A stretch of DNA of 64,000 nucleotides from Waterburya sp. (lineage in GTDB: Bacteria > Cyanobacteriota > Cyanobacteriia > Cyanobacteriales > Xenococcaceae): positions 3,520,001 to 3,584,000 of the forward strand of contig CBDCJV010000002.1 of NCBI GenBank assembly GCA_965217895.1, in the 5' to 3' direction. Of the stretch, positions 1 to 10,872 are shown in pieces (position 1 is the stretch's first letter; each line of letters starts with the position of its first letter). Both the position numbers and the translations under genes were made by a program. The notes below the pieces were generated by a model, which was given only the letters and a program-made list of their open reading frames with translations, was not told the origin of the DNA and ran no database searches.

Positions 1-268
1 TAATAAGTCGTTTTTTATCTATAGAGCGAATTTGATTGAGCAATACTACAGAATTATTACTAAGTCCGCCTTCGGGAGGTTCAATGAAAACTTCAGTAGG
101 ATAGAGATTGTCATCATACTGAGAAGTAATAGCTGCAACAATTGTAATAGGGCTAAATTCATTGCCGATGTCGTTTTGGAGAATTAAAGCAGGACAAGTT
201 TTTTTTATTTCTGAACCAATAGTAGGATCGAAATTAACTAAATACACTTCACCACGTTTCGGTAACAT
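1..268 (-). CDS. PemK/MazF-family toxin (runs off the window edge)
   Basis: Manual translation from ATG 268: MLPKRGEVYLVNFDPTIGSEIKKTCPALILQNDIGNEFSPITIVAAIT...LNQIRSIDKKRL. Start overlaps the antitoxin stop (TAATG). Confidence 0.9.
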   Translation of the reverse strand, partial: MLPKRGEVYLVNFDPTIGSEIKKTCPALILQNDIGNEFSPITIVAAITSQYDDNLYPTEVFIEPPEGGLSNNSVVLLNQIRSIDKKRLI

Positions 269-513
269 TATTTTTGGTTTTCGAGCCATACCTCTTCTTC
301 GAGATCGAACCAAGTTTCAGCCAGATTTAAGTCTCTTTGCGATCTTTCAATAGCTCCCTGTCTTAACTGTTCTCTTAGTTTTTTCTTTTCAACTTCAGTA
401 ATATAATATTTGACTGCATCGTTGATAAAACGACTGCGATCGCCTTTGGGAACTATGTGATTAAGTAATTCAATAGTTTCGTTTGGCAAAGTGATATTAA
501 TGCGACGATTCAT
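268..513 (-). CDS. Ribbon-helix-helix antitoxin
   Basis: RRINITLP...RSRFINDAV RHH pattern; coupled to the downstream MazF. Confidence 0.85.
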   Translation of the reverse strand: MNRRINITLPNETIELLNHIVPKGDRSRFINDAVKYYITEVEKKKLREQLRQGAIERSQRDLNLAETWFDLEEEVWLENQK

Positions 514-543
514 TTTCCATCTTGTTTCAATAAGTATTTTTAA

Positions 544-562
544 TACACATTATTAGTGTGTA
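544..562. promoter_or_regulatory. Inverted repeat, putative TA autoregulatory operator
   Basis: TACACA-N7-TGTGTA just upstream of the antitoxin start. Confidence 0.5.
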
Positions 563-611
563 GATTTAATATAGCAAAAATATTACAGCTTAGAATGACT
601 TCAATGTGATG

Positions 612-719
612 GTGCGATGTGTTGATAATTAACAACATTGGCGTTGTGCCGATCATTAATCGTAGGGGCGATCGCGCGTTGCGAAGCTATGCCGTAGGCT
701 TATCGCCCTGACAGGGTTT
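612..719 (+). repeat. Direct-repeat copy A flanking RAYT; its REP is interrupted by a small insert
   Basis: 612-671 matches 1314-1373 at 57/60 nt; both copies end in ACAGGGTTT. Insert GCGAAGCTATGCCGTAGGCTTATCGC at 681-706. Confidence 0.85.
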
Positions 720-722
720 TAC

Positions 723-1277
723 TTACCATTTTGATGGGTTATTTGGATGCAATTGATCTATTGACCAGGATTGGGGATTATTGATGATGTATTGGCGTAT
801 TTTATTCATTGCGTCCTGGTTACGGATAATGTGTTCGTAATAATTGCGTTGCCATAACGTTGTTCCTGGCGCGTCACGTAATATATTGATTTTTTTGGTG
901 GTGATTGATTTGAAACCTGCCATTAATGATGATAATGATTTTGGTTTCATTTGTGATGGCGAAATATCCCGTAGGGGCGAACGGCCGTTCGCCCCTACAT
1001 GGTTGTCGTTGGTAATCATTACAATTCCGTGAAAATGGTTGGGCATCATCACCCATCGATCCAATTCAATTTCCCGTCGAATTACGGATGATTTTTGCCA
1101 TTCATCGGCGACAATTGCACCATATTGATTCAAAACCATTTGCCCATCAACCACATCACCAAACAAACATTGTCGTCGATACGCGCAAATGGTCACAAAA
1201 TACGCCCCTGATTGGCTGTAATCATATCCTGGTAATCGGATCGATCGCCTGTGGTGTTTGTCGGGATCATATTTCAT
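723..1277 (-). mobile_element. REP-associated tyrosine transposase (RAYT, Y1 HUH family)
   Basis: RRSIRLPGYDYSQSGAYFVTIC, HUH motif MPNHFHGI, LWQRNYYEHIIR, catalytic-Tyr region YIINNP; flanked by GTAG REPs. Confidence 0.93.
971..998. repeat. REP, 28-bp perfect palindrome, inside the RAYT ORF
   Basis: GTAGGGGCGAACGGCCGTTCGCCCCTAC, read as VGANGRSPL in the protein. Confidence 0.95.
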
Positions 1278-1313
1278 GGATTTTAATTATGGTTGGGTTG
1301 ATTAATTGCGATC

Positions 1314-1398
1314 GTGCGATGTGTTGATAATTAACAACATTGGCATTGTGTCGATCATTTATCGTAGGGGCGAACGGCCGTTCGCCCCTACAGGGTTT
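1314..1398 (+). repeat. Direct-repeat copy B with intact REP (1364-1391)
   Basis: Matches copy A and contains the perfect 28-bp palindrome. Confidence 0.9.
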
Positions 1399-1489
1399 GA
1401 CGGTATTCGTACAAGATTGATCGCCATTCATCGTAATGATGGGAACACGATTGGTAATGGCGATCGCTTAATTATTTAATTATTTCAAT

Positions 1490-2278
1490 TTAAGATTTGC
1501 TTGTCTTGGGCGGGATAGCTTCAACTCTGCCATCAGGATAAACCTTTAATTCACCACCAAGTTTTTCAATATTTTCCTGTGCTGCTTCACGGGTCATTTT
1601 TTCTTTGCTGTTTACCCAAACTTGAAACCAAATGCCTACTTGAGCTTGGGTTGTATCAGGATTTGTAGCTAAAAATTTGACTGTCTTACTGGCTGATTGA
1701 GCTATTTTCTTATCTTTTGCAATGGTTGCCCATTCTGCGGCTTTTTCGTAGGATTTTCTAGCATTTTTTAAGTCTCCAAAAAACAAAATTTCGTCTGTTC
1801 CTTTATATAGCCAAACAAAATAGGCATAGGGCATATCAGGGGTAAGATGTTTAAGTCCTCGATCCATTAGTTCTAAGGTGCGTTTTGGAGTGCCACCAAA
1901 TACAGAAGATGCAGGAGAAATAATCATATAAGCAGTGCTAAATCGTGGGTCTTTATTGGTAATAACTTCTAGATAATCTGCACTCAAGGAATAACCCGTT
2001 TCTTTTCTAGCTTCTCCATCACCAAAATATTGCATAAACTCTAGCATTGACCAATCTGCAATCAGATTATCAAAGCCAAAGGCTGGCATTTTTTTGAGAA
2101 AAGATAATTGTATATTTTTACTTTTATCTTGTTTTAAATAAATATCTTTTGTTAAAGTTTTTTCTGATATTCTTTCAATTTGAGCAGACTGCAATTTAAT
2201 AGTTAAAAATAAACAGGATGATCCTAAACATAATGCTAAAAATTGCTTGATAAACCGAGATGATAACTTTCTGGTCAT
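1490..2278 (-). CDS. Pilin-operon-associated protein with TPR-like helices (Sll1696-like)
   Basis: N-terminal TM; PAFGFDNLIADW..F.QYFGD motif; directly downstream of two pilins, as in the Synechocystis pilA1-pilA2 operon. Confidence 0.65.
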   Translation of the reverse strand: MTRKLSSRFIKQFLALCLGSSCLFLTIKLQSAQIERISEKTLTKDIYLKQDKSKNIQLSFLKKMPAFGFDNLIADWSMLEFMQYFGDGEARKETGYSLSADYLEVITNKDPRFSTAYMIISPASSVFGGTPKRTLELMDRGLKHLTPDMPYAYFVWLYKGTDEILFFGDLKNARKSYEKAAEWATIAKDKKIAQSASKTVKFLATNPDTTQAQVGIWFQVWVNSKEKMTREAAQENIEKLGGELKVYPDGRVEAIPPKTSKS

Positions 2279-2318
2279 AGTCTTTAATAATAAGCAAAAT
2301 TATGAATAAATAATTTAA

Positions 2319-2834
2319 TCAAAAAACAGGAGTGGTTCCAGCAGTGCAAGCAGGAACACCCGCAGTAACGGTTGCAGGAATCGGCGCGATTGCACCATCA
2401 GCCGTGTTTTGCTCGCAGATAAATGCTTTGAAAACACCTGAAGAAGTTTGACCAACAGCAGAAGAATAATCCTTGAGGTCATTTTGAAAGGTATCTACTA
2501 CGGTTGCTATCTGAACCGCTCTTTCGGAATTAGGAGTTCCGCTATCAGCATAAGTATAATAATTACCTGCAATGCTCAACTGTAGATTAGGAATAGTAGT
2601 AAATGAGCCTGTTTGAAAACGATGAGCTTGCTGCGCTCTATTAATATTACCAAGAAAAACTTTTGCTTCTGTTTGTCTACCTTTTTCTATTTGCTTAAAA
2701 AGACTTGGCATAGCAACTGCTGATAAAATACCCAGAATTATTACTACTACTAATAATTCAATTAAGGTAAAGCCTTGGTTATTTATCTTCTTGGTTTTTC
2801 TAGACAAAATTAAGTCTAATTTATATTTAATCAT
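2319..2834 (-). CDS. pilA: Type IV pilin (PilA2-like)
   Basis: Class III signal QG|FTLIELLVVVIILGILSAVAMP; C-terminal Cys pair. Confidence 0.9.
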   Translation of the reverse strand: MIKYKLDLILSRKTKKINNQGFTLIELLVVVIILGILSAVAMPSLFKQIEKGRQTEAKVFLGNINRAQQAHRFQTGSFTTIPNLQLSIAGNYYTYADSGTPNSERAVQIATVVDTFQNDLKDYSSAVGQTSSGVFKAFICEQNTADGAIAPIPATVTAGVPACTAGTTPVF

Positions 2835-2847
2835 AATAAAAAATATC

Positions 2848-2885
2848 AAAAAAAAAGAGCATTTTAGCTAAACTTAAAATGCTCT
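2848..2885 (-). terminator. Intrinsic terminator between the pilin genes
   Basis: AGAGCATTTTA...TAAAATGCTCT hairpin followed by a T-run on the minus strand. Confidence 0.8.
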
Positions 2886-2916
2886 AGATATATACTTTGA
2901 ACAGTAACAGTTAAAC

Positions 2917-3468
2917 TTACTGTTTTATAGCAGTAGATCCTGTACCACAAGTGATAGTACCAAGAGTAGCGCCTTCAACGGCATCAACGGCAGTAGTAGC
3001 TCCGTCAACTACACTGTTTTCGCAGATTAGGGCAGTGAAAGCACCAGCAACAGTTTGACCCACTGCTCCAGTGTAATCCTTAACATCAGCTTGGTAAGCG
3101 GTTCTTGCGGTAGCGTCTACAGCAGCAAATGTACCAGATGGAGTACCTTGGTTAGTAAATGCATAATTATTACCAGTACCAGGAGTAGTACCAGCATCAA
3201 GAACTATACCAATTGGTAAAGCTTCAATAGCAGAGAACGTACCATTTTGTAGTCTTTCAGCCTGTTGTGAACGATTGATAGAACCGACAGTTGTTTTTGC
3301 TTCTGACTGTCTTGCTTTACCAACTTGACCAAGTAAGTTAGGTAGAGCAATGGCAGCCAATACACCGATAATGATTACAACAACTAATAGTTCGATTAAT
3401 GTAAAACCTTTGTTGCCTTTTTTGTTATTTAGGTTTTGTAGTAATTTAGCAGTAAATACGTTATTCAT
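2917..3468 (-). CDS. pilA: Major type IV pilin (PilA1-like)
   Basis: KG|FTLIELLVVVIIIGVLAAIALPNLLGQVGKARQSEAK; followed by a terminator. Confidence 0.93.
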   Translation of the reverse strand: MNNVFTAKLLQNLNNKKGNKGFTLIELLVVVIIIGVLAAIALPNLLGQVGKARQSEAKTTVGSINRSQQAERLQNGTFSAIEALPIGIVLDAGTTPGTGNNYAFTNQGTPSGTFAAVDATARTAYQADVKDYTGAVGQTVAGAFTALICENSVVDGATTAVDAVEGATLGTITCGTGSTAIKQ

Positions 3469-3540
3469 GGTTATATCCTTCAATTAATAAGAGTTTGTGT
3501 TTTGGGTGTTTGTTTTAGGTTTTTCTTTCCTATTTAGAAA

Positions 3541-3546
3541 TTACCC
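3541..3546 (-). promoter_or_regulatory. Putative SigF promoter element
   Basis: GGGTAA ~75 nt upstream of the pilin ATG. This motif is known for SigF-dependent pilA1 promoters. Confidence 0.55.
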
Positions 3547-3695
3547 AAGCGATCATCAAAACATATCATCATGAAAAAGTTTTTTTTGGGAATATTTGCT
3601 AGTAATAACTAATAGTATTAACAGCGATCCAAATCACATTTTTGGTGTTGATTTGAAGAAGATTAAATTAATGGTTTTGTTTGCCCCGTTGTTTT

Positions 3696-3998
3696 TTATT
3701 TTCGGGTAATACCGATATTCCCCGTAGGGGCGAACGGCCGTTCGCCCCTACATCAATGTGCGGTGGTGCGATGTTGACATATGTAGAGAATTGGGGAAAG
3801 GCGATCGCCTGAACGTATGCAGGGTTGGTTAAAGGCGATCGCATTTGTAATGTAGAATATTTTGGGATATGCGATCGCATTTGTGGATCATTTCAATTTT
3901 CGGGTAATACCGATAAACCTCGTAGGGGCGAATGGCCATTCGCCCCTACATATGGTGCGATCGCCTGAACGTATGAAGGGTTGGGGAAAGGCGATCGC
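3696..3998 (+). repeat. REP/HIP1 mosaic block 1
   Basis: REPs at 3724-3751 and 3922-3949; HIP1 at 3801, 3835, 3871, 3957, 3991; sub-units shared with block 2. Confidence 0.9.
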
Positions 3999-4036
3999 TC
4001 TTTTATTTTAACTGTGTTAAATTTAAAATAGAATAA

Positions 4037-4054
4037 TGTAGTCTACAAGCTACA
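4037..4054. promoter_or_regulatory. Inverted repeat upstream of addiction module
   Basis: TGTAG-N8-CTACA immediately before the toxin ATG. Confidence 0.45.
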
Positions 4055-4059
4055 AATAA

Positions 4060-4404
4060 ATGGAAGCTCAAGAAAAAACTATACTTACCTATGTAAAAGA
4101 CAACGGTTTTGTACCCTTCAACGATTGGCTTGAATCTTTGCGAGATAGAAAATCAAGAGCAATAATCAGAACTAGAATCAACCGCCTTCGGCTGGGTAAT
4201 TTGGGAGACTGTAAGAGTGTCGATGGAGGAGTAAGCGAACTAAGAATTAATTTTGGTTCTGGCTATCGAATTTATTTTGTTCAGCAAGGAAACACAGTAA
4301 TAATTTTGCTATCAGGTGGAGATAAAAGCAGTCAGGACAAAGATATTAAACAGGCAAAACTATATTGGCAAGATTATAAGAGGCGTGGTGATGAACAGAA
4401 GTAG
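4060..4404 (+). CDS. RelE/HigB-type addiction module killer toxin
   Basis: PFNDWLESLRD...RLRLGNLGDCKSVDGGVSELRINFGSGYRIYF...GGDKSSQDKDI. Confidence 0.9.
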   Translation: MEAQEKTILTYVKDNGFVPFNDWLESLRDRKSRAIIRTRINRLRLGNLGDCKSVDGGVSELRINFGSGYRIYFVQQGNTVIILLSGGDKSSQDKDIKQAKLYWQDYKRRGDEQK

Positions 4405-4690
4405 AAGCTATCGAGAAGATTTGCTAAAATCTTTGAGCGATCCTGAAGAAGCCAGGGAATATCTTAATGCTGCTTTGGAAGATGAAAATCCCGAAGTATT
4501 TTTATTGGCACTAAAAGATATAGTTGATGCTAACAGCAGCATGAGTAAATTAGCACAGGCAACTAATCGCAATCGAGAAAGTTTGTATAAAACTCTCTCG
4601 GAAAAAGGCAATCCGCAGTTAAATAGTATTCGCAGTATTTTAAACAATTTGGGGTTTAAATTAGCGGTAGAAGTTAATTCTTCTCCCTAA
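4391..4690 (+). CDS. Addiction module antidote protein (HTH)
   Basis: EYLNAALED...MSKLA...RESLYKTLSEKGNP; overlaps the toxin stop. Confidence 0.88.
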   Translation: MNRSRSYREDLLKSLSDPEEAREYLNAALEDENPEVFLLALKDIVDANSSMSKLAQATNRNRESLYKTLSEKGNPQLNSIRSILNNLGFKLAVEVNSSP

Positions 4691-4737
4691 AATTGTTTAC
4701 ATCAAGGATTTATTTATATAGGGCGATCTCTGTCAAA

Positions 4738-5067
4738 TCATAATCCCAACCAGCTTCGTAAGGAACTTTCTAGTTTTTGAGCATCGGCTTTTGAAAGTTT
4801 ACCAATGACTTTTATCACTAGCTTTTTTTCGACTGTATATAAACCTCTTTTTGCTGCGGTAGGAACATTTAATCCTTCTTTTAACCAATCGAGAAGAACA
4901 AACTCGCCTGACAATAACCGAGTAGTTTTACTAGTTAAGGGTACGATAATAACATCTTGAGAAGTAGATGCTGTACTAACAATAACAGCAGGTCTTACCT
5001 TAGAATTAGATAAATCAGAAAAAGGATAACGGACTAGAATAATATCATTCTTCAAGTAATTTGGCAT
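4738..5067 (-). CDS. PemK/MazF-family toxin
   Basis: DIILVRYPFSDLSNSKVRPAVIVS...IIVPLTS. Confidence 0.88.
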   Translation of the reverse strand: MPNYLKNDIILVRYPFSDLSNSKVRPAVIVSTASTSQDVIIVPLTSKTTRLLSGEFVLLDWLKEGLNVPTAAKRGLYTVEKKLVIKVIGKLSKADAQKLESSLRSWLGL

Positions 5068-5248
5068 AAACATCATCCTCTGTGTTGTCCCAAACTTTGT
5101 CTAATGATGCTTTGCTAGATTGATTCCAAAACTCAATTTCTTCATCTGGTAGTACTGTAATTAGAACTCTCGTACCTTCTGAAAGTTCAAGCTGTTCTGG
5201 TATTTCAATTTTTCCTTGATGGACAGTAGCTAACACTGTTTTTAACAT
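5045..5248 (-). CDS. Putative antitoxin
   Basis: Small protein overlapping the toxin start; acidic C-terminus WDNTEDDVY. Confidence 0.75.
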   Translation of the reverse strand: MLKTVLATVHQGKIEIPEQLELSEGTRVLITVLPDEEIEFWNQSSKASLDKVWDNTEDDVYAKLLEE

Positions 5249-5310
5249 AGGAATTTTATGGTGTGTAGATATATTTTAATTTAGCTTGTTGCAGTATAAA
5301 TTTGAGAAAT

Positions 5311-5540
5311 GCGATCGCATTTGTATGTAGAAGATTTTGGGATATGCGATCGTGATTGCGTATAAAGGGTTTAAAAAAGGCGATCGCCCTTTCTGGTAGA
5401 AAATTAATTAAAGGCGATCGCCTTGGGGATTATTTCAATTTCCTGGTAATACCGATAAACCTCGTAGGGGCGAACGGCCGTTCGCCCTTACATATGGTGC
5501 GATCGCCTGAACGTATAAAGGGTTGGGATAAGGCGATCGC
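5311..5540 (+). repeat. REP/HIP1 mosaic block 2
   Basis: HIP1 at 5311, 5346 (GCGATCGT), 5380, 5414, 5499, 5533; REP at 5464-5491; 5430-5540 is near-identical to 3888-3998. Confidence 0.9.
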
Positions 5541-5549
5541 ACAAATTAC

Positions 5550-5927
5550 CTACCAATTAATGACTGTTAGATCGTTAACCTTGTCTAATTGAACATCGCG
5601 AGTAACTAGCTTCGCTGATTTTTCTCTTGCCGTTGCAGCGATAACTGCATCTGGTAATTTTAAGCGGTATTGTTGACGAATAAAAATAATTTGCCCAATT
5701 AGCCATTCATCTTGACTAGATAAACTAATAACTTCTACTCGTTGTAAAAACTGTTGAAAAAGCAATATATCCGCTTCAGTTAAGCCTGAGAAAGCAAGAA
5801 ACTCGATTTGACTAATTACAGAAATTCCGACCCATTCTGCATCTTTGAGTAATTGAACCAGGCTGGAGTCTTTTTGCAGCAGCGCAATGATAGCATTGGT
5901 ATCTAACAAATAGCGATTACCATTCAT
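5550..5927 (-). CDS. vapC: VapC/PIN-domain toxin
   Basis: YLLDTNAII, SVISQIEFL, LKLPDAVIAATA, LVTRD. Confidence 0.9.
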   Translation of the reverse strand: MNGNRYLLDTNAIIALLQKDSSLVQLLKDAEWVGISVISQIEFLAFSGLTEADILLFQQFLQRVEVISLSSQDEWLIGQIIFIRQQYRLKLPDAVIAATAREKSAKLVTRDVQLDKVNDLTVINW

Positions 5928-6141
5928 CTCTTAATTTTCTTTGTGTTGCCACAGCATCACCTTGCCAGTTGAGTTCTCCTCCCAAATCTGAAAAATCATA
6001 GGTAGCTTGTTTTTGATCCTTCTCTACAACACGATTAACGACTACTACTAAATCCACTTTGCCAGCTTTTAGATTAGTTGGCAGATTAATATTCAACTGT
6101 CCTGTGTCATCAATCTCAGTTGTGAGTTTTAGAACTTCCAT
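5917..6141 (-). CDS. Putative antitoxin of the PIN toxin
   Basis: Overlaps the toxin start; C-terminal DAVATQRKLRDEW motif. Confidence 0.75.
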   Translation of the reverse strand: MEVLKLTTEIDDTGQLNINLPTNLKAGKVDLVVVVNRVVEKDQKQATYDFSDLGGELNWQGDAVATQRKLRDEW

Positions 6142-6349
6142 TGTTTTCTATATTTTAGTAAAAGCTTTACTCTATGGTAGCAATTTGACAATTCAAGAAG
6201 GCGATCGCACTTTGAAAGTCAAAAGTTTTAAAGGCTTAAGCTGCATGGAGTAAAAAAGAATTATGGTTTAAGGCTTTGGGATAACAACTTTATTAAAAAT
6301 CTCGCTAGGATGAAAGCAGATCATCAGGCTCTAAGGCAGAGGAAAAGCA

Positions 6350-8239
6350 ATGAAATCCATTAAACCTTGGCAGGTAGGAATTTTAATCTTGCCGATTGCA
6401 ACTATCGTCATTTTTCTATTAGTTGCAGCAGGTTCACAAATTCATAATTGGGGTATTAATTGGATTTGGGGTGTCGTCGTCTTAGTATTTGCTTTATGGC
6501 GATGGTTACTGGTGAAGTGGACAAAGCCTCCTTTAGCTGAGATTCAAGAGGCGATAGACGAAATTAATCAGGAATTGTCACAAGAGCCAGAGATAGAAGC
6601 AGTAGGAAGTAAGGAAAAGCAATTACAAGCCTCTTTAGAACAAATTATTGCTAAAACCAGAGCCGATGAACCAGTTTGGGAAGATTGGCAGACTTTTTGG
6701 CAACGGTGTCAAGAGTTGTTAGTTGCGATCGCTCATATATATAATCCCAGTGTTAAACGTCCTTTGCTTAATATTTACATTCCCCAGGCTTACGGCTTGA
6801 TTCGTGGGACGGTAGATGACACGGATCGCATGATGCAAAAGCTTTCCCCTGTTTTAAACCGAGTATCTATCGGACAGGCTTATGAAGCTTATGAAGTTTA
6901 TCGTCGGCTAGAGCCATCGGTACGTAAACTAGGTCAGGTATTTGATTGGTCACAATGGTTAATTAATCCCGCAGTAGCAGTTGCCAAAGGAGCTACCAAG
7001 AAATTTAGCAACCAGGCAAATCAAGAACTATTGCTTAATCTGGGTCAATTAATGCGGGAAACGGCATTAAAAAATTTGGCACAACAGGCGATCGCTCTTT
7101 ATGGTGATGAAACCATTACTATTCCTGAAGTCGCCTCGAATTATGCCCTGCCGAAAACCGAAACTCAAACTCTTAAGCAAATTCTAGAGTCTGCCGAATC
7201 ACCTCAAAAAGTAGCCCAAAAGCCCGTCAATATTATTTTAGTAGGGCGTACAGGTGCAGGCAAAAGCAGCCTGATTAATACTCTGTTTCAAGCCGACAAA
7301 GCTGAAGTAGATGTTTTGCCCAGTACCGATAAAATTAAAAACTATCGTTGGCAAACTCCTAGGGGAGAAGTTCTGAATTTACTAGATACTCCTGGTTATG
7401 AACAGGTAAATCGTTCTGAATTGCGAGAAAAAGTTTTAGACTATGCAGCTACAGCAGACTTGCTATTATTGGTTACTCCCGCTCTCGATCCTGCTCTACA
7501 AATGGATCTTGATTTCTTAGAAACCTTAAAAAAGGATCTGCCTGATTTAAGTGCTGTAGGAATTGTTACCCAAGTCGATCGCCTGCGCCCAATTCGTGAG
7601 TGGAATCCTCCTTATAACTGGCAAGAAGGGACAAAACCCAAAGAAATATCTATCCGAGAGGCAACTATTTATCGCGCCGAATTATTAGGAAATATCTGCG
7701 ATTTGATTTTACCAATAGTCACAGAAGATCGCACCAGCGATCGCGCTGCTTGGGGTGCAGAAGCCTTGTCTAAGGAGTTAATCCAGGCGATCGCACCAGC
7801 TAAACAGCTTCGTCTAGCAAGATTTTTACGGGATTTGGAAGCTCGCAGCACAGCAGCAGCTAAAATTATCGATCGTTATACTCGTCAAATGGCAACTAGC
7901 CAGGGTTTAACTGCTTTTCTTAAAAGCCCCGTACTGCAATTTATTTCCACTATGACTACAGGAAATCCCACCCTCGCCTATGTTTTAGCCGAGCAAATTC
8001 CTGTAGAACAGTTGCCCGTGGTTATTGGTAAACTACAAATGGCTTATGACTTATATATGTTGCTCAAGGATGAACCCAATCTCAGCAACTTTGATTTACG
8101 TTCTTTATGGTCATTGCTTTTAGACGACAATGAAGTAGAAAATCTCAACACCTGGGCTTTTGGTCACGCTTTAGTCGAATATTGGACTAAAAATCTCAAT
8201 TCCCAGCAACTGCGCGAGCGCTATCAATTCTATATTTAG
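6350..8239 (+). CDS. Membrane-anchored GTPase family protein
   Basis: Two N-terminal TMs; G1 GRTGAGKSS, G3 DTPG, G4-like TQVD. The extreme C-terminus abuts a foreign fragment. Confidence 0.85.
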   Translation: MKSIKPWQVGILILPIATIVIFLLVAAGSQIHNWGINWIWGVVVLVFALWRWLLVKWTKPPLAEIQEAIDEINQELSQEPEIEAVGSKEKQLQASLEQIIAKTRADEPVWEDWQTFWQRCQELLVAIAHIYNPSVKRPLLNIYIPQAYGLIRGTVDDTDRMMQKLSPVLNRVSIGQAYEAYEVYRRLEPSVRKLGQVFDWSQWLINPAVAVAKGATKKFSNQANQELLLNLGQLMRETALKNLAQQAIALYGDETITIPEVASNYALPKTETQTLKQILESAESPQKVAQKPVNIILVGRTGAGKSSLINTLFQADKAEVDVLPSTDKIKNYRWQTPRGEVLNLLDTPGYEQVNRSELREKVLDYAATADLLLLVTPALDPALQMDLDFLETLKKDLPDLSAVGIVTQVDRLRPIREWNPPYNWQEGTKPKEISIREATIYRAELLGNICDLILPIVTEDRTSDRAAWGAEALSKELIQAIAPAKQLRLARFLRDLEARSTAAAKIIDRYTRQMATSQGLTAFLKSPVLQFISTMTTGNPTLAYVLAEQIPVEQLPVVIGKLQMAYDLYMLLKDEPNLSNFDLRSLWSLLLDDNEVENLNTWAFGHALVEYWTKNLNSQQLRERYQFYI

Positions 8240-8543
8240 CTTCCAAGCGGTTTTACTCTCGTTAGCACTACCTAAAAAACTGGTTTCACTGCCGTCTGTA
8301 TATGTAATAATTCCTGCCTTACCGTGAATTAGCCCAAATACTTCATCGGGAAGTACCCGCACCTGCATTTTGTCCTGAGCTAGAAACTCGAACAGTCGGG
8401 CAAAGCGAGGATGAGATAGTTCTGGTAATTTTTTGGGTTTACCTGCACACCAAGAACGACGGATGGCGGTACGGGAAGCTTTAGCGGTTTCTACATCTTG
8501 GACGAAAAGATCGGAGTTACAAACTACTCTAATTGTTCCATCA
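8225..8543 (-). pseudogene. Internal fragment of a PLD-nuclease domain (PLD-SNF2 helicase, anti-phage-type)
   Basis: Reads GTIRVVCNSDL.VQDVETAKA...SWCAGKP...FGLIHGKAGII...FLGSANES.TAWKLN (HxK, GSxN); no start and no helicase part. Confidence 0.65.
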
Positions 8544-8758
8544 TCAAAAAAGAACTACTAGCCGCCATTGAAGTTGCTTCTGATGAAGTACTTGCCCAGA
8601 CTCTTTTCCTTAAAAAATCTTTAAACACAGTAGGAAATACATCTTTATCTAGAGAGTACCCAAGTTCACTTGATCGTTTTACAAAATTTTTGCAATCTGA
8701 AGGTTTTTATGAAGATGAGTATATTGATCGCTGCATGGCAGAAATCGAAAATAAATGA
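8541..8758 (+). pseudogene. 5'-truncated antitoxin-like gene
   Basis: IKKELLAAIEVASDEVLAQTL resembles small cyanobacterial antitoxin N-termini; overlaps the PIN start (ATGA); its own start is replaced by the PLD fragment. Confidence 0.5.
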
Positions 8759-9294
8759 TTGTCGCAGTTATTGATTCCTGCATCATTTTCGGAATGCCTT
8801 TGTGCGATACACTTTTGAGAGCCGCAGAACAAAATTTATATCGAATTATTCTATTTCAAAAAATACTTGAAGATGCCACTCGCAACATGGTTATCAAAAG
8901 TAAACTCAAAAGCGATCAAGAGCAATATTACCAGCAACAAATTCTAAATGCCTTTGCCGATTGTTTTGTAGAAGCTCCACCAAACCTGATTGAATCGATA
9001 ACTAATGCCACATCTGATCGCCACGTTGCGGCAACTGCGATCGCTAGCAATGCTAGTTATATTGTAACTTTCAATCTCAAAGATTTTTCTCAGACTTCCC
9101 TCGCTAACTACGATCTCGATGCCATACACCCCGATCTGTTTTTAAAATTATTATGCGATCGATGGGGAGATGAAAGATTATACCGACTGATTTGTCAACA
9201 ATCGAACGCTCTCCAAAATCCCCCTATTTCTCCTGAGTTACTTTTGAATAAACTAGCGCGTCAACAATGCGATCATTCAAATTTGAAGTTTTGA
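8755..9294 (+). CDS. PIN-domain protein
   Basis: AVIDSCI...DRHVAATAI...IVTFNLKDF...HPDLFL. Confidence 0.85.
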   Translation: MIVAVIDSCIIFGMPLCDTLLRAAEQNLYRIILFQKILEDATRNMVIKSKLKSDQEQYYQQQILNAFADCFVEAPPNLIESITNATSDRHVAATAIASNASYIVTFNLKDFSQTSLANYDLDAIHPDLFLKLLCDRWGDERLYRLICQQSNALQNPPISPELLLNKLARQQCDHSNLKF

Positions 9295-9372: not shown

Positions 9373-9650
9373 TTATCTAATAGTCACCGAATGTTCTAGA
9401 TTTTCCGAGAAGGAAGCCCAATCAATTGCACCTTCGGTATCGGCTTTTGGAGATGCCCTAATTTTGCTCAAATCTGGTTTATAAGTTACTCTGACGTACT
9501 CGGTAAGGCTTCTTGATGTCGAATGTATCTTGCCACCTGTTCGGCTTTTACCTTGAATGATTCACCAGTAGAAAGCCAAGTCGCAAAGGTTTCTTGTAGC
9601 CCTTCTTCTCGTTCTTCTCCAGTCAAAGATTCATCGTCGGCGATCGCACT
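9373..9650 (-). pseudogene. Internally deleted phage Gp157-like gene remnant
   Basis: AIADDESLTGEERE..LQETF..WL.TGESFKVKAEQVARYIRHQEAL, then in another frame EYVRVTYKPDLSKIRA...SVTIR*. Family call is from memory of cyanobacterial Gp157 proteins. Confidence 0.5.
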
Positions 9651-10262
9651 AATCGCATCATCTACAACTAACCCTGTGGCTAGAATCAAGCCAAACAAAG
9701 TCAAACTATTGAGTGAAAATCCAAAGATAAAAGCAAACCCCAATGCACCTATTAGTGATACGGGAATTGCCACGGCGGGAATAACGGTGGTGCGCCAATC
9801 TTGGAGGAAGATAAAGATAATGATGATTACTAGAGCGATCGCCTGAAGTAAGGTTATAAAAATCTCAAAATTTTAACTACCAAATTTTCAAACTCAGCTT
9901 TACCTTGAAGACGACCTTGAATCTTAACTGGTAGCTCATAATCTTGATCTCCAGGGTTAGGCTCTTGACCGATAGAACCTGCACCCACTACTACGTTTTG
10001 CGAACTAACCGCTTGAGATACATCCAATACGGTTAATCCTCTAGCTGCTAAAGCTTGAGAGTCTAGCCAGAGACGCATCGCATTTTGTTTTGCGCCGAAT
10101 ACGGTAACGTCTCCAACCCCCTCAATCCGCTTTAAAACATTAGTGACATTGGCATCAACATAGTTACTAACGAAAATGTCATTGTAGACTCCTTTTTCAC
10201 TATAAATACCAAAGATCAAGAGGATGCTACTAGATGCTGCTTCAGTAGTAACCCCCCAAGTT
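9650..10262 (-). pseudogene. Two fragments of an RND (AcrB/HAE1) efflux permease
   Basis: FLQDWRTTVIPAVAIPVSLIG...LTLFGLILATGLVVDDAI and LKRIEGVGDV.VFG..AMRLWLD...QGRL; the intervening and flanking parts are missing. Confidence 0.85.
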
Positions 10263-10264
10263 TG

Positions 10265-10872
10265 GTAGGGCTGTTTCATTCTAAAGCTAAAGTGGGTTAA
10301 ATTGATTTAAAGAACTAATTTAACCGCTTAATGACTTTAAAAAACTTTGATAAAAGCTTAATTGACTATCTAAAACAAATACCTGATGAACGAAAAGCTG
10401 GTGGTCGAAGGCATTCTTTGTGGCTGATATTATTGATAACGATTTTAGGCATAATGAGCGGTTATTGGGGATATCGAGGTTTGGGCAGATTTGTCGAACG
10501 GCATCGCCGTCAATTAATTGAAACGCTCAAAATCCCACAAGCTAGAGTTCCATCTTATTCGACAATGAGAAGGGTAATGATGAGCTTAGACTATGAGGCA
10601 GTAACTCAAGTATTTAATGAATGGGCATCTCAGTATACTCACAATAGTCAAGGTCAATGGATTGCAATTGATGGCAAAAGTTTGAAAAATACTGTCAACG
10701 ACTGTTATGGACAACAGCAAAACTTCGTCATGATGGTTTCGATTCTATGACCGAGGCAATCAGTTATTTAAGCCATAATTTGCCATTATTACTTCCTTTG
10801 TGCCACTGATAGGAATAGTAAATATACTTATTCGCGATCGCATTTCTTTTTTAGAGAATGAAACAGCCCTAC
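10265..10872 (+). mobile_element. Internally deleted ISAs1-family IS
   Basis: 18-bp perfect terminal IRs GTAGGGCTGTTTCATTCT (10265-10282 and 10855-10872). Transposase N-terminus at 10331-10750 (IPDER..GRRH, PSYST, IAIDGKSLK) is joined to a short C-terminal stub. Confidence 0.85.

Follow-up and report, generated by a model that had tools for sequence, protein, structure and literature searches.

Known cassette systems and the pilA-linked array

Two kinds of bacterial gene array come closest to the one that is the subject of this report. Chromosomal integrons and CALIN, as described for Vibrio (PMC4889954), hold cassettes of fixed orientation and variable content and order, with a directional repeat at the cassette ends and toxin-antitoxin (TA) genes among the cargo, and the repeats at the cassette ends are more alike within an array than between arrays. 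The dif modules of Acinetobacter (PMC13141974) are small, many of them are TA modules, and they lie between short pdif sites with no recombinase in the array; they are shuffled by host functions (XerCD), and their 28-bp sites (11+6+11) alternate in orientation and yield inversions. Here, we describe an array in the genome of Waterburya sp. (G000, the genome under study), in which three type II TA operons upstream of pilA are separated by REP-bearing units and by repeats that run from one copy of the palindromic octamer HIP1 (GCGATCGC) to the next. The array lies in a stretch of 64,000 nucleotides, G000:C2:3520001-3584000, which is called the window below. The content and order of such cassettes differ between genomes and their orientation is fixed; HIP1 and a one-directional repeat stand at the junctions, and at least one cassette is far more alike between two distant genomes than their other genes are.

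What HIP1 does has been a standing question for three decades, and the evidence for a role in recombination consists of a few laboratory events. A deletion between HIP1 sites at smtB is given at second hand in PMC13756078, where methylation-dependent gains in integration are also described. HIP1 is tied to site-specific recombination in PMC4390886, the cases discussed in these sources including plasmid recombination in Synechococcus PCC 7002, and transformation is reported to be raised by homologous and methylated HIP1 (bioRxiv 10.1101/2024.09.10.611283). PMC5861425 treats HIP1 spacing at the kilobase scale and not repeats of the kind described here. The very small HIP1-linked repeat SDR5 of Nostoc (Elhai et al. 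2008, as cited in PMC4390886 and PMC5861425) consists of 21 nt inserted into a single HIP1 and is a dispersed element. RAYT/REP systems (REPIN; PMC5581495) have a Y1 transposase flanked by GTAG-type REP hairpins. Our literature search found no description of HIP1-punctuated TA arrays; most subscription papers and supplements were outside that search, and Elhai et al. (2008) may describe related small repeats.

Structure of the array

Exact HIP1 octamers start at window positions 3801, 3835, 3871, 3957, 3991, 5311, 5380, 5414, 5499, 5533 and 6201, and the sites at 5346 and 4723 are copies with one mismatch. The layout given in the original prediction was reproduced: HIP1 recurs every 34-36 bp in two blocks, each block contains a unit of 85 or 86 bp with one REP, one type of unit occurs three times (3801, 3957 and 5499) and another twice (3835 and 5311), and the TA operons lie between the sites at 3991, 4723, 5311, 5533 and 6201, of which 4723 is a near-HIP1 site. 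Two of the operons are bracketed by a 118-bp direct repeat (3881-3998 and 5423-5540, 92% identity). The array starts about 230 bp upstream of pilA; at this place relatives have either the same REP unit or a hairpin repeat of another kind, which goes with a DUF559 gene. The individual features are collected in Table 1.

The basic repeat extends from one HIP1 to the next over 30-36 bp, with an asymmetric middle that is A/T- and G-rich (29 full copies). It also forms the 3' end of the longer REP unit, which starts with HIP1 and a left flank, continues with the REP hairpin and a right flank, and closes with a repeat whose left HIP1 is decayed, followed by HIP1. The hairpin of the REP unit varies by copy and may be single, doubled or lost.

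Content, order and orientation in relatives

The pil locus was fetched from 26 of the 38 other genomes of the genus; the remaining 12 had no pilA-level match among the matches listed. The repeat family is present in 11 of these 26 relatives (G007, G008, G014, G017, G019, G020, G022, G023, G043, G044 and G052). In ten of them the array stands directly upstream of pilA, and in G020 it is detached from pilA and lies beside an ISAs1-type element. Pfam was run on 122 of the 152 listed open reading frames (ORFs). The cargo of the arrays comprises HicAB, MNT/HepT, ParE/RelB, two MazEF types, two PIN types, DUF433/DUF5615, DUF4926/DUF6883 and DUF4160/DUF2442, with an IS605-type TnpB and one unknown ORF as rare exceptions.

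Order was compared over 12 arrays that hold 46 copies, some of them partial, of 12 cassette families (11 TA-like and the unknown ORF). The orientation of the cassettes is concordant in all 46 copies, and the shared blocks of at least 350 nt are co-oriented in 42 of 42 cases. Their order is another matter: both orders are seen for 10 of the 32 cassette pairs that two or more arrays have in common, and 29 of 34 adjacencies are distinct. Deletion from a single ancestral order therefore cannot explain the arrays. These differences in content and order support the original prediction that HIP1-bounded units are gained, lost and reordered between genomes, and its description of the locus as integron-like without an integrase agrees with the fixed orientation, the variable order and the directional site at the cassette ends. 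The stretch from pilA to a GTPase gene, which it had proposed to compare between strains, is not a conserved interval; the GTPase gene (6350) lies elsewhere in the relatives and is not the conserved right flank. Homology to the GTPase locus begins about 80 bp past the last HIP1 (6201).

Junctions and blocks shared between species

HIP1 with at most one mismatch is present at 36 of the 38 junctions between neighbouring modules, and at 34 of them it is exact. One of the two junctions without HIP1 is the side of an IS insertion, and the other is a script artefact in which the gene match overlaps a HIP1 that is present. For comparison, exact HIP1 occurs in 6-28% of G000 intergenic stretches of like length. 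A profile of the repeat, trained on 45 sites from eight relatives and none from G000, scores at 33 of the 38 junctions, always on the + strand and never on the - strand, and the repeat held at seven of the eight junctions of arrays outside the training set. When 11,755 HIP1 flanks of G000 were scored with this profile, sites of the window took ranks 1-4, 6 and 11, all of them on the + strand, and so the repeat is both locus-specific and directional.

Several blocks are shared between species at an identity well above that of other genes. The MazEF block of the window (4723-5331) is 98% identical to a block in G052, whose non-array gene blocks match G000 at 74-78%. The shared block begins at the near-HIP1 site 4723, to the left of which the neighbours differ, and ends 13 nt into the repeat after the HIP1 at 5311. 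G019 and G052 have four cassettes in common at 90-92% identity, as against 77% at pilA, and a ParDE block that begins at HIP1 is 98-99.6% identical between G022 and G043, which are 80% identical at pilA. In G008, MazEF2 and ParDE are joined at a single near-HIP1 site. The corresponding place in G019 is taken up by a repeat plus an MNT/HepT cassette that lie between two sites of this kind.

Chance and signal

G000 is rich in HIP1, with 5,798 sites on its 5.2-Mb contig, and HIP1 density was discarded as evidence because it is not significant: at least 11 sites per 2.5 kb were reached in 311 of 500 gap shuffles. A genome-wide peak at 34 bp, as had been predicted, is absent: the four lengths from 33 to 36 bp together account for 20 gaps, where the mean for one length is 4.8. 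The clustering of close HIP1 pairs is significant, five pairs lying within 2.5 kb here and only 3 of 500 shuffles matching this. The one denser cluster of close pairs is a second TA array of G000 (six pairs), and every other interval has at most two.

HIP1 flanking could also be a general trait of TA genes. This was ruled out with TA-like loci outside the arrays, a set found by similarity and incomplete, where a close HIP1 pair lies within 400 bp in only 2 of 34 loci and HIP1 stands on both sides in 2 of 34; the trait belongs to the arrays. Independent assemblies show the same architecture, and this speaks against an artefact of assembly. A scan of a species-level genome collection with a degenerate form of the repeat found eight stretches, in Pleurocapsa, Hyellaceae or unclassified cyanobacteria.

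A second array and other families

The second TA array of G000 (G000:C2:2380100-2385600; L053:4150-9600) lies behind a gene for an Ig/cadherin-like surface protein, itself next to a P-II gene. Its cargo consists of BrnT/BrnA, HicA-type genes, DUF6888/6887, two DUF433/DUF5615 pairs and DUF29, and the TA content varies among relatives. The repeats are HIP1-bracketed, of 17-19 bp and 30-33 bp, and unrelated to those of the first array; there is no repeated REP, and no recombinase was found beside the array. In G020, pieces of the second array (L122 and L077) are tens of kb apart and each is still flanked by second-array repeats, and in one of them a new HIP1-bounded unit of 33 bp is repeated perfectly three times in tandem.

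Of the 151 genomes of the order, 102 have three closely spaced HIP1 sites, and G000 is among them. For 30 such genomes the locus listed first was taken, and a TA-family Pfam lies within 1.5 kb of it in nine (11 counting XisH/XisI), a count for which 123 of 136 ORFs were submitted to Pfam and which has no matched control from those genomes. Nine extended stretches, picked for repeats or TA matches, include multi-module arrays with their own repeats in other families. For example, G096:C14 (L113:1300-11500), from another family, has an array of about 10 kb with roughly eight TA-like modules and DUF559, separated by tandem 24-32-bp HIP1 repeats and lying behind a gene with calcium-binding RTX repeats. 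The cargo is not always TA; G147:C1 (L114:5700-9000) has three tandem DUF2887 paralogues with 35-bp HIP1 repeats between them.

We put forward tentatively, and with more doubt than confidence, that HIP1 is the working signal for recombination in an order-wide, recombinase-free gene-cassette system of cyanobacteria. If so, any duplicated short HIP1-bracketed segment would become a locus-specific directional joint, and whole operons would be traded between species too distant for ordinary homologous recombination, with TA arrays as the most visible product.

Sites and enzymes

No match to the integron integrase model TIGR02249 in G000 exceeds the cut-off (best 54.7 versus 265 bits), and a core-motif search of four junction regions found no pairs of attC cores on either strand. 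The 29 full repeats, compared with a dif site, have no dyad symmetry beyond HIP1 and 2-3 flanking bases. In view of the missing cores, the variable length and the lack of symmetry, attC and dif/lox-like readings of the repeat were rejected. Folding of the repeat comes mainly from the pairing of HIP1 with HIP1 and a few adjacent bases, and hairpin folding was thus rejected as a signal, because it follows mainly from the presence of two copies of a palindrome. A CRISPR reading was rejected as well, the repeats being diverged, often head-to-tail, and separated by operons of 500-900 bp. Rfam gave no match of note in window positions 1-7000.

A possible mechanism and its alternatives

On the comparisons above, we consider it fairly probable that host recombination at HIP1-containing direct repeats adds, removes and reorders the TA operons, with no dedicated recombinase. 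The published observations on smtB, on site-specific recombination and on transformation, cited at the outset, back this indirectly. The DNA would come from other cyanobacteria, probably by natural transformation; comEC is intact and C5 methyltransferase genes are present. It would be joined in where crossovers fall inside the repeats of 30-40 bp or on the HIP1 octamer itself, possibly aided by HIP1 methylation. Orientation would be set by the repeat's asymmetric middle, because a bare palindrome would permit inversions. Unequal crossovers would multiply the repeats, and most cargo would be deleted again between them. TA operons, with their predicted toxins, would persist through addiction because their loss poisons the cell, and the arrays would therefore end up as almost only TA. 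The RAYT likely seeded the REP unit that gave rise to the repeat of the first array, and other loci use other local sequence.

Several points weigh against this mechanism. We infer the recombination itself from genome comparison. For RecA, repeats of this length (30-36 bp) and identity (60-80%) are a short and diverged substrate, its minimum (MEPS) being 25-35 bp in the account of short-homology limits and homology-facilitated illegitimate recombination in PMC6382021. The repeat family is missing at pilA in 15 of the 26 relatives, two of which end at a contig edge; the others show DUF559 or RAYT units, a small number of TA genes, or nothing comparable. The strain's transformation may now be poor, given that dprA is in two frames in the assembly (G000:C2:1742166-1742796; a frameshift or an assembly error). 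The repeat counts at the relatives' junctions are partly circular, as eight relatives supplied the training sites. The block-end test gives a modest result. Of 58 non-coding ends, 18 are no more than 5 nt from HIP1 in both sequences, as against 19% of non-coding positions; the test covered blocks of at least 85% identity, without one end at a contig edge and 18 that fall inside genes. Moreover, block ends are not independent, and the statistic cannot separate HIP1 from the adjoining repeat. HIP1 is reported to be conserved by selection (PMC5861425), and alignments may stop at HIP1 for that reason. Finally, within one family the HIP1-to-gene distance varies from copy to copy, which implies that first capture was not at a fixed site.

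The last of these points would also be expected if the TA operons had simply accumulated, each arriving singly by an unrelated illegitimate event at a hot spot beside a variable surface gene, with the HIP1 repeats growing later by slippage and HIP1 merely conserved at the junctions. Both arrays of G000 do adjoin such genes, a pilin and the Ig/cadherin-like gene; the perfect triplication of the 33-bp unit in G020 indicates that repeats can amplify alone, and the title of Robinson et al. (1997) speaks of HIP1-promoted excision that is equal in E. coli. The small excess of block ends at HIP1 fits this explanation too. Nevertheless, independent insertions should give both orientations, while the concordance among the cassette copies is complete despite the changes in order. 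The cassette-sized block of 98% identity between distant genomes ends in repeats, and the difference between G008 and G019 runs from HIP1 to HIP1; both speak against piecemeal arrival. We therefore regard passive accumulation as unlikely.

Two further explanations call on an enzyme. The original prediction proposed that the neighbouring RAYT does the shuffling, and it could do so by cutting single-stranded DNA at REP hairpins and mobilising REP-linked TA modules. Its frame is uninterrupted and 2.4 kb away, a split second copy lies just outside the window, and RAYT fragments stand between TA operons left of the pil genes. In E. coli, a variable TA locus is associated with REPs (PMC3184786). The REP hairpins of the RAYT are GTAG-type and recur genome-wide (58 REP-like matches); those beside the RAYT are the best matches to the array's REP units outside the array, and the left flank of the REP unit is homologous, in inverted orientation, to the sequence that adjoins the REP of the RAYT at 1364. 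However, a REP hairpin is found at only one of the 38 junctions, with REP-unit remnants at eight, and none of the 58 block ends is within 15 nt of a REP hairpin, although 5.5% of non-coding positions are that close. With this query, no RAYT was found in three array-bearing genomes, G017 and G022 (99% complete drafts) and G023 (one contig), and G019 has only partial matches elsewhere in the genome; the three may have had a RAYT in the past. The second array and those of other families repeat non-REP sequence. Shuffling by the RAYT is thus quite improbable. Flank sequence is common to the RAYT and the REP units, and so its contribution was probably confined to the scaffold, as the source of the REP-unit flanks; it is not part of the shuffled array. 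The other enzyme would be a dedicated site-specific recombinase acting in trans, a tyrosine recombinase or an unknown enzyme, that reads the repeat directionally in the manner of IntI/attC or XerCD/pdif. The directional end site, the fixed orientation and the TA cargo resemble integrons and dif modules as portrayed in PMC4889954 and PMC13141974, and the genome has ten tyrosine-recombinase matches (PF00589). Yet the nearest of these is about 400 kb from the array, and the searches for an integron integrase, attC cores and dyad symmetry were negative, as noted above. Each locus has an unrelated repeat, which one enzyme is unlikely to serve unless it reads HIP1 only, and we hold such a recombinase to be hardly likely. 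Host recombination at the HIP1-containing repeats is the reading that we retain.

Features of the locus and its surroundings

Table 1. Features of the array and of the genes beside it, in window coordinates.
Feature	Position	Strand	Remarks
RAYT-like Y1 transposase gene, uninterrupted frame	723..1277	-	Y1_Tnp match; NF047646 65.5 bits (cut-off 80)
REP hairpins by the RAYT	971, 1364		
Type IV pilin gene, pilA-like; conserved anchor of the array head	2917..3483	-	Pilin_GH + N_methyl
Head REP unit, then HIP1 3801	3693..3808	+	Hairpin 3724-3751; right flank ends in repeat with decayed left HIP1
Two tandem HIP1-to-HIP1 repeats	3801..3878	+	34 + 36 bp
REP unit and 34-bp repeat	3871..3998	+	Unit of 86 bp, hairpin 3922-3949; direct repeat of 5414-5540
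Cassette 1, predicted toxin, RelE/HigB-like	4060..4404	+	Gp49, HI1419 family; HigBA-like operon with the HI1420 partner
Cassette 1, predicted antitoxin	4391..4690	+	HI1420 family
Partial repeat	4693..4730	+	Ends in the near-HIP1 site 4723, from where the 98% G052 block runs rightward
Cassette 2, predicted toxin, PemK/MazF-like	4738..5076	-	
Cassette 2, putative antitoxin	5045..5248	-	By size and position only; no Pfam/NCBIfam match
Three tandem repeats	5311..5421	+	35, 34, 34 bp (HIP1 5311, near-HIP1 5346, HIP1 5380, 5414)
REP unit and 34-bp repeat	5414..5540	+	Unit of 85 bp, hairpin 5464-5491
Cassette 3, predicted toxin, PIN/VapC-like	5550..5927	-	
Cassette 3, putative antitoxin	5917..6141	-	By size and position only; no Pfam/NCBIfam match
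Last HIP1, end of cassette 3	6201..6208		

Another TA cluster lies left of the pil genes (G000:C2:3517000-3520500; L052:13000-16600) and runs into window positions 1-600. It contains Uma2, a PIN pair, the split second RAYT and MazEF. In this region, fragments of RAYT genes or flanks separate the operons in G000, G007, G008, G010 and G043. To the right of the array, the window has a further PIN-type pair (8498-9294), efflux-pump-like gene fragments (9486-10279), recognised by their translation alone, and a transposase gene of the ISAs1 type (10331-10855) with inverted repeats of 18 bp.

The pil locus seems to be hypervariable. Matches to the pilin genes are fragmentary in G023, where a Wzy_C gene (O-antigen-ligase-like) stands upstream, and a TPR/glycoside-hydrolase gene is found there in G017 and G050. 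A DUF559 nuclease gene with its own G/C-run hairpin repeat is present in L020 (G023:C1:4922000-4941000) and at L017:4300-5360. G023 has about a dozen tandem HIP1-to-HIP1 copies of the DUF559 type, each 149-163 bp, upstream of pilA, and in G044 DUF559-type units separate TA operons. A literature search found no paper on this DUF559-linked hairpin repeat. Short inserts split HIP1-like or REP sequence at window 680-704, L016:8331-8360 and L017:6279-6310. We take these to resemble SDR5, and inserts inside some of the array sites are presumably SDR5-like as well.

Significance

The arrays represent natural, repeated events of gain, loss and reordering with HIP1 at the joints, in genomes that are about 25% diverged. 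The 34-bp repeat is a defined substrate that makes the function of HIP1 directly testable, and the arrays suggest a way in which TA operons accumulate in cyanobacteria. Should less than 40 bp of homology be enough for HIP1-bracketed repeats to direct integration, they would also be a simple tool for cyanobacterial genetics.

Comparison with known systems

The HIP1-associated recombination at smtB and in Synechococcus PCC 7002 has its breakpoints at HIP1; in the array, ends fall exactly at HIP1 in several cases, and the statistic over all ends is modest. Unlike those single laboratory events, tandem HIP1 repeats here punctuate a natural multi-cassette array that is exchanged between species. 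The resemblance to RAYT/REP systems is in the REPs carried by the array units; REPINs spread as small repeats and are not known to have gene cassettes as cargo (PMC5581495), whereas the junctions of the array are at HIP1 and not at REP. SDR5 is likewise a very small HIP1-linked repeat, dispersed and placed inside one HIP1, while the repeat here lies between two HIP1 sites at one locus.

The likeness to dif modules extends to the small modules, the many TA genes, the short sites and the lack of a recombinase in the array. The sites differ, as the repeats here are variable in length and all direct, and no inversion was seen. With chromosomal integrons and CALIN, the array shares the fixed orientation of the cassettes, their variable content and order, the directional end repeat, the TA cargo and the greater likeness of repeats within than between arrays. 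Unlike integrons, the genome has no IntI and the array has no attC cores or long hairpin; in their place is a 30-36-bp HIP1-bounded repeat, often in tandem, and the cargo is nearly all TA and transcribed either way. Thus, the array has neither the defining site nor the defining enzyme of integrons or of dif modules, and yet it behaves like them.

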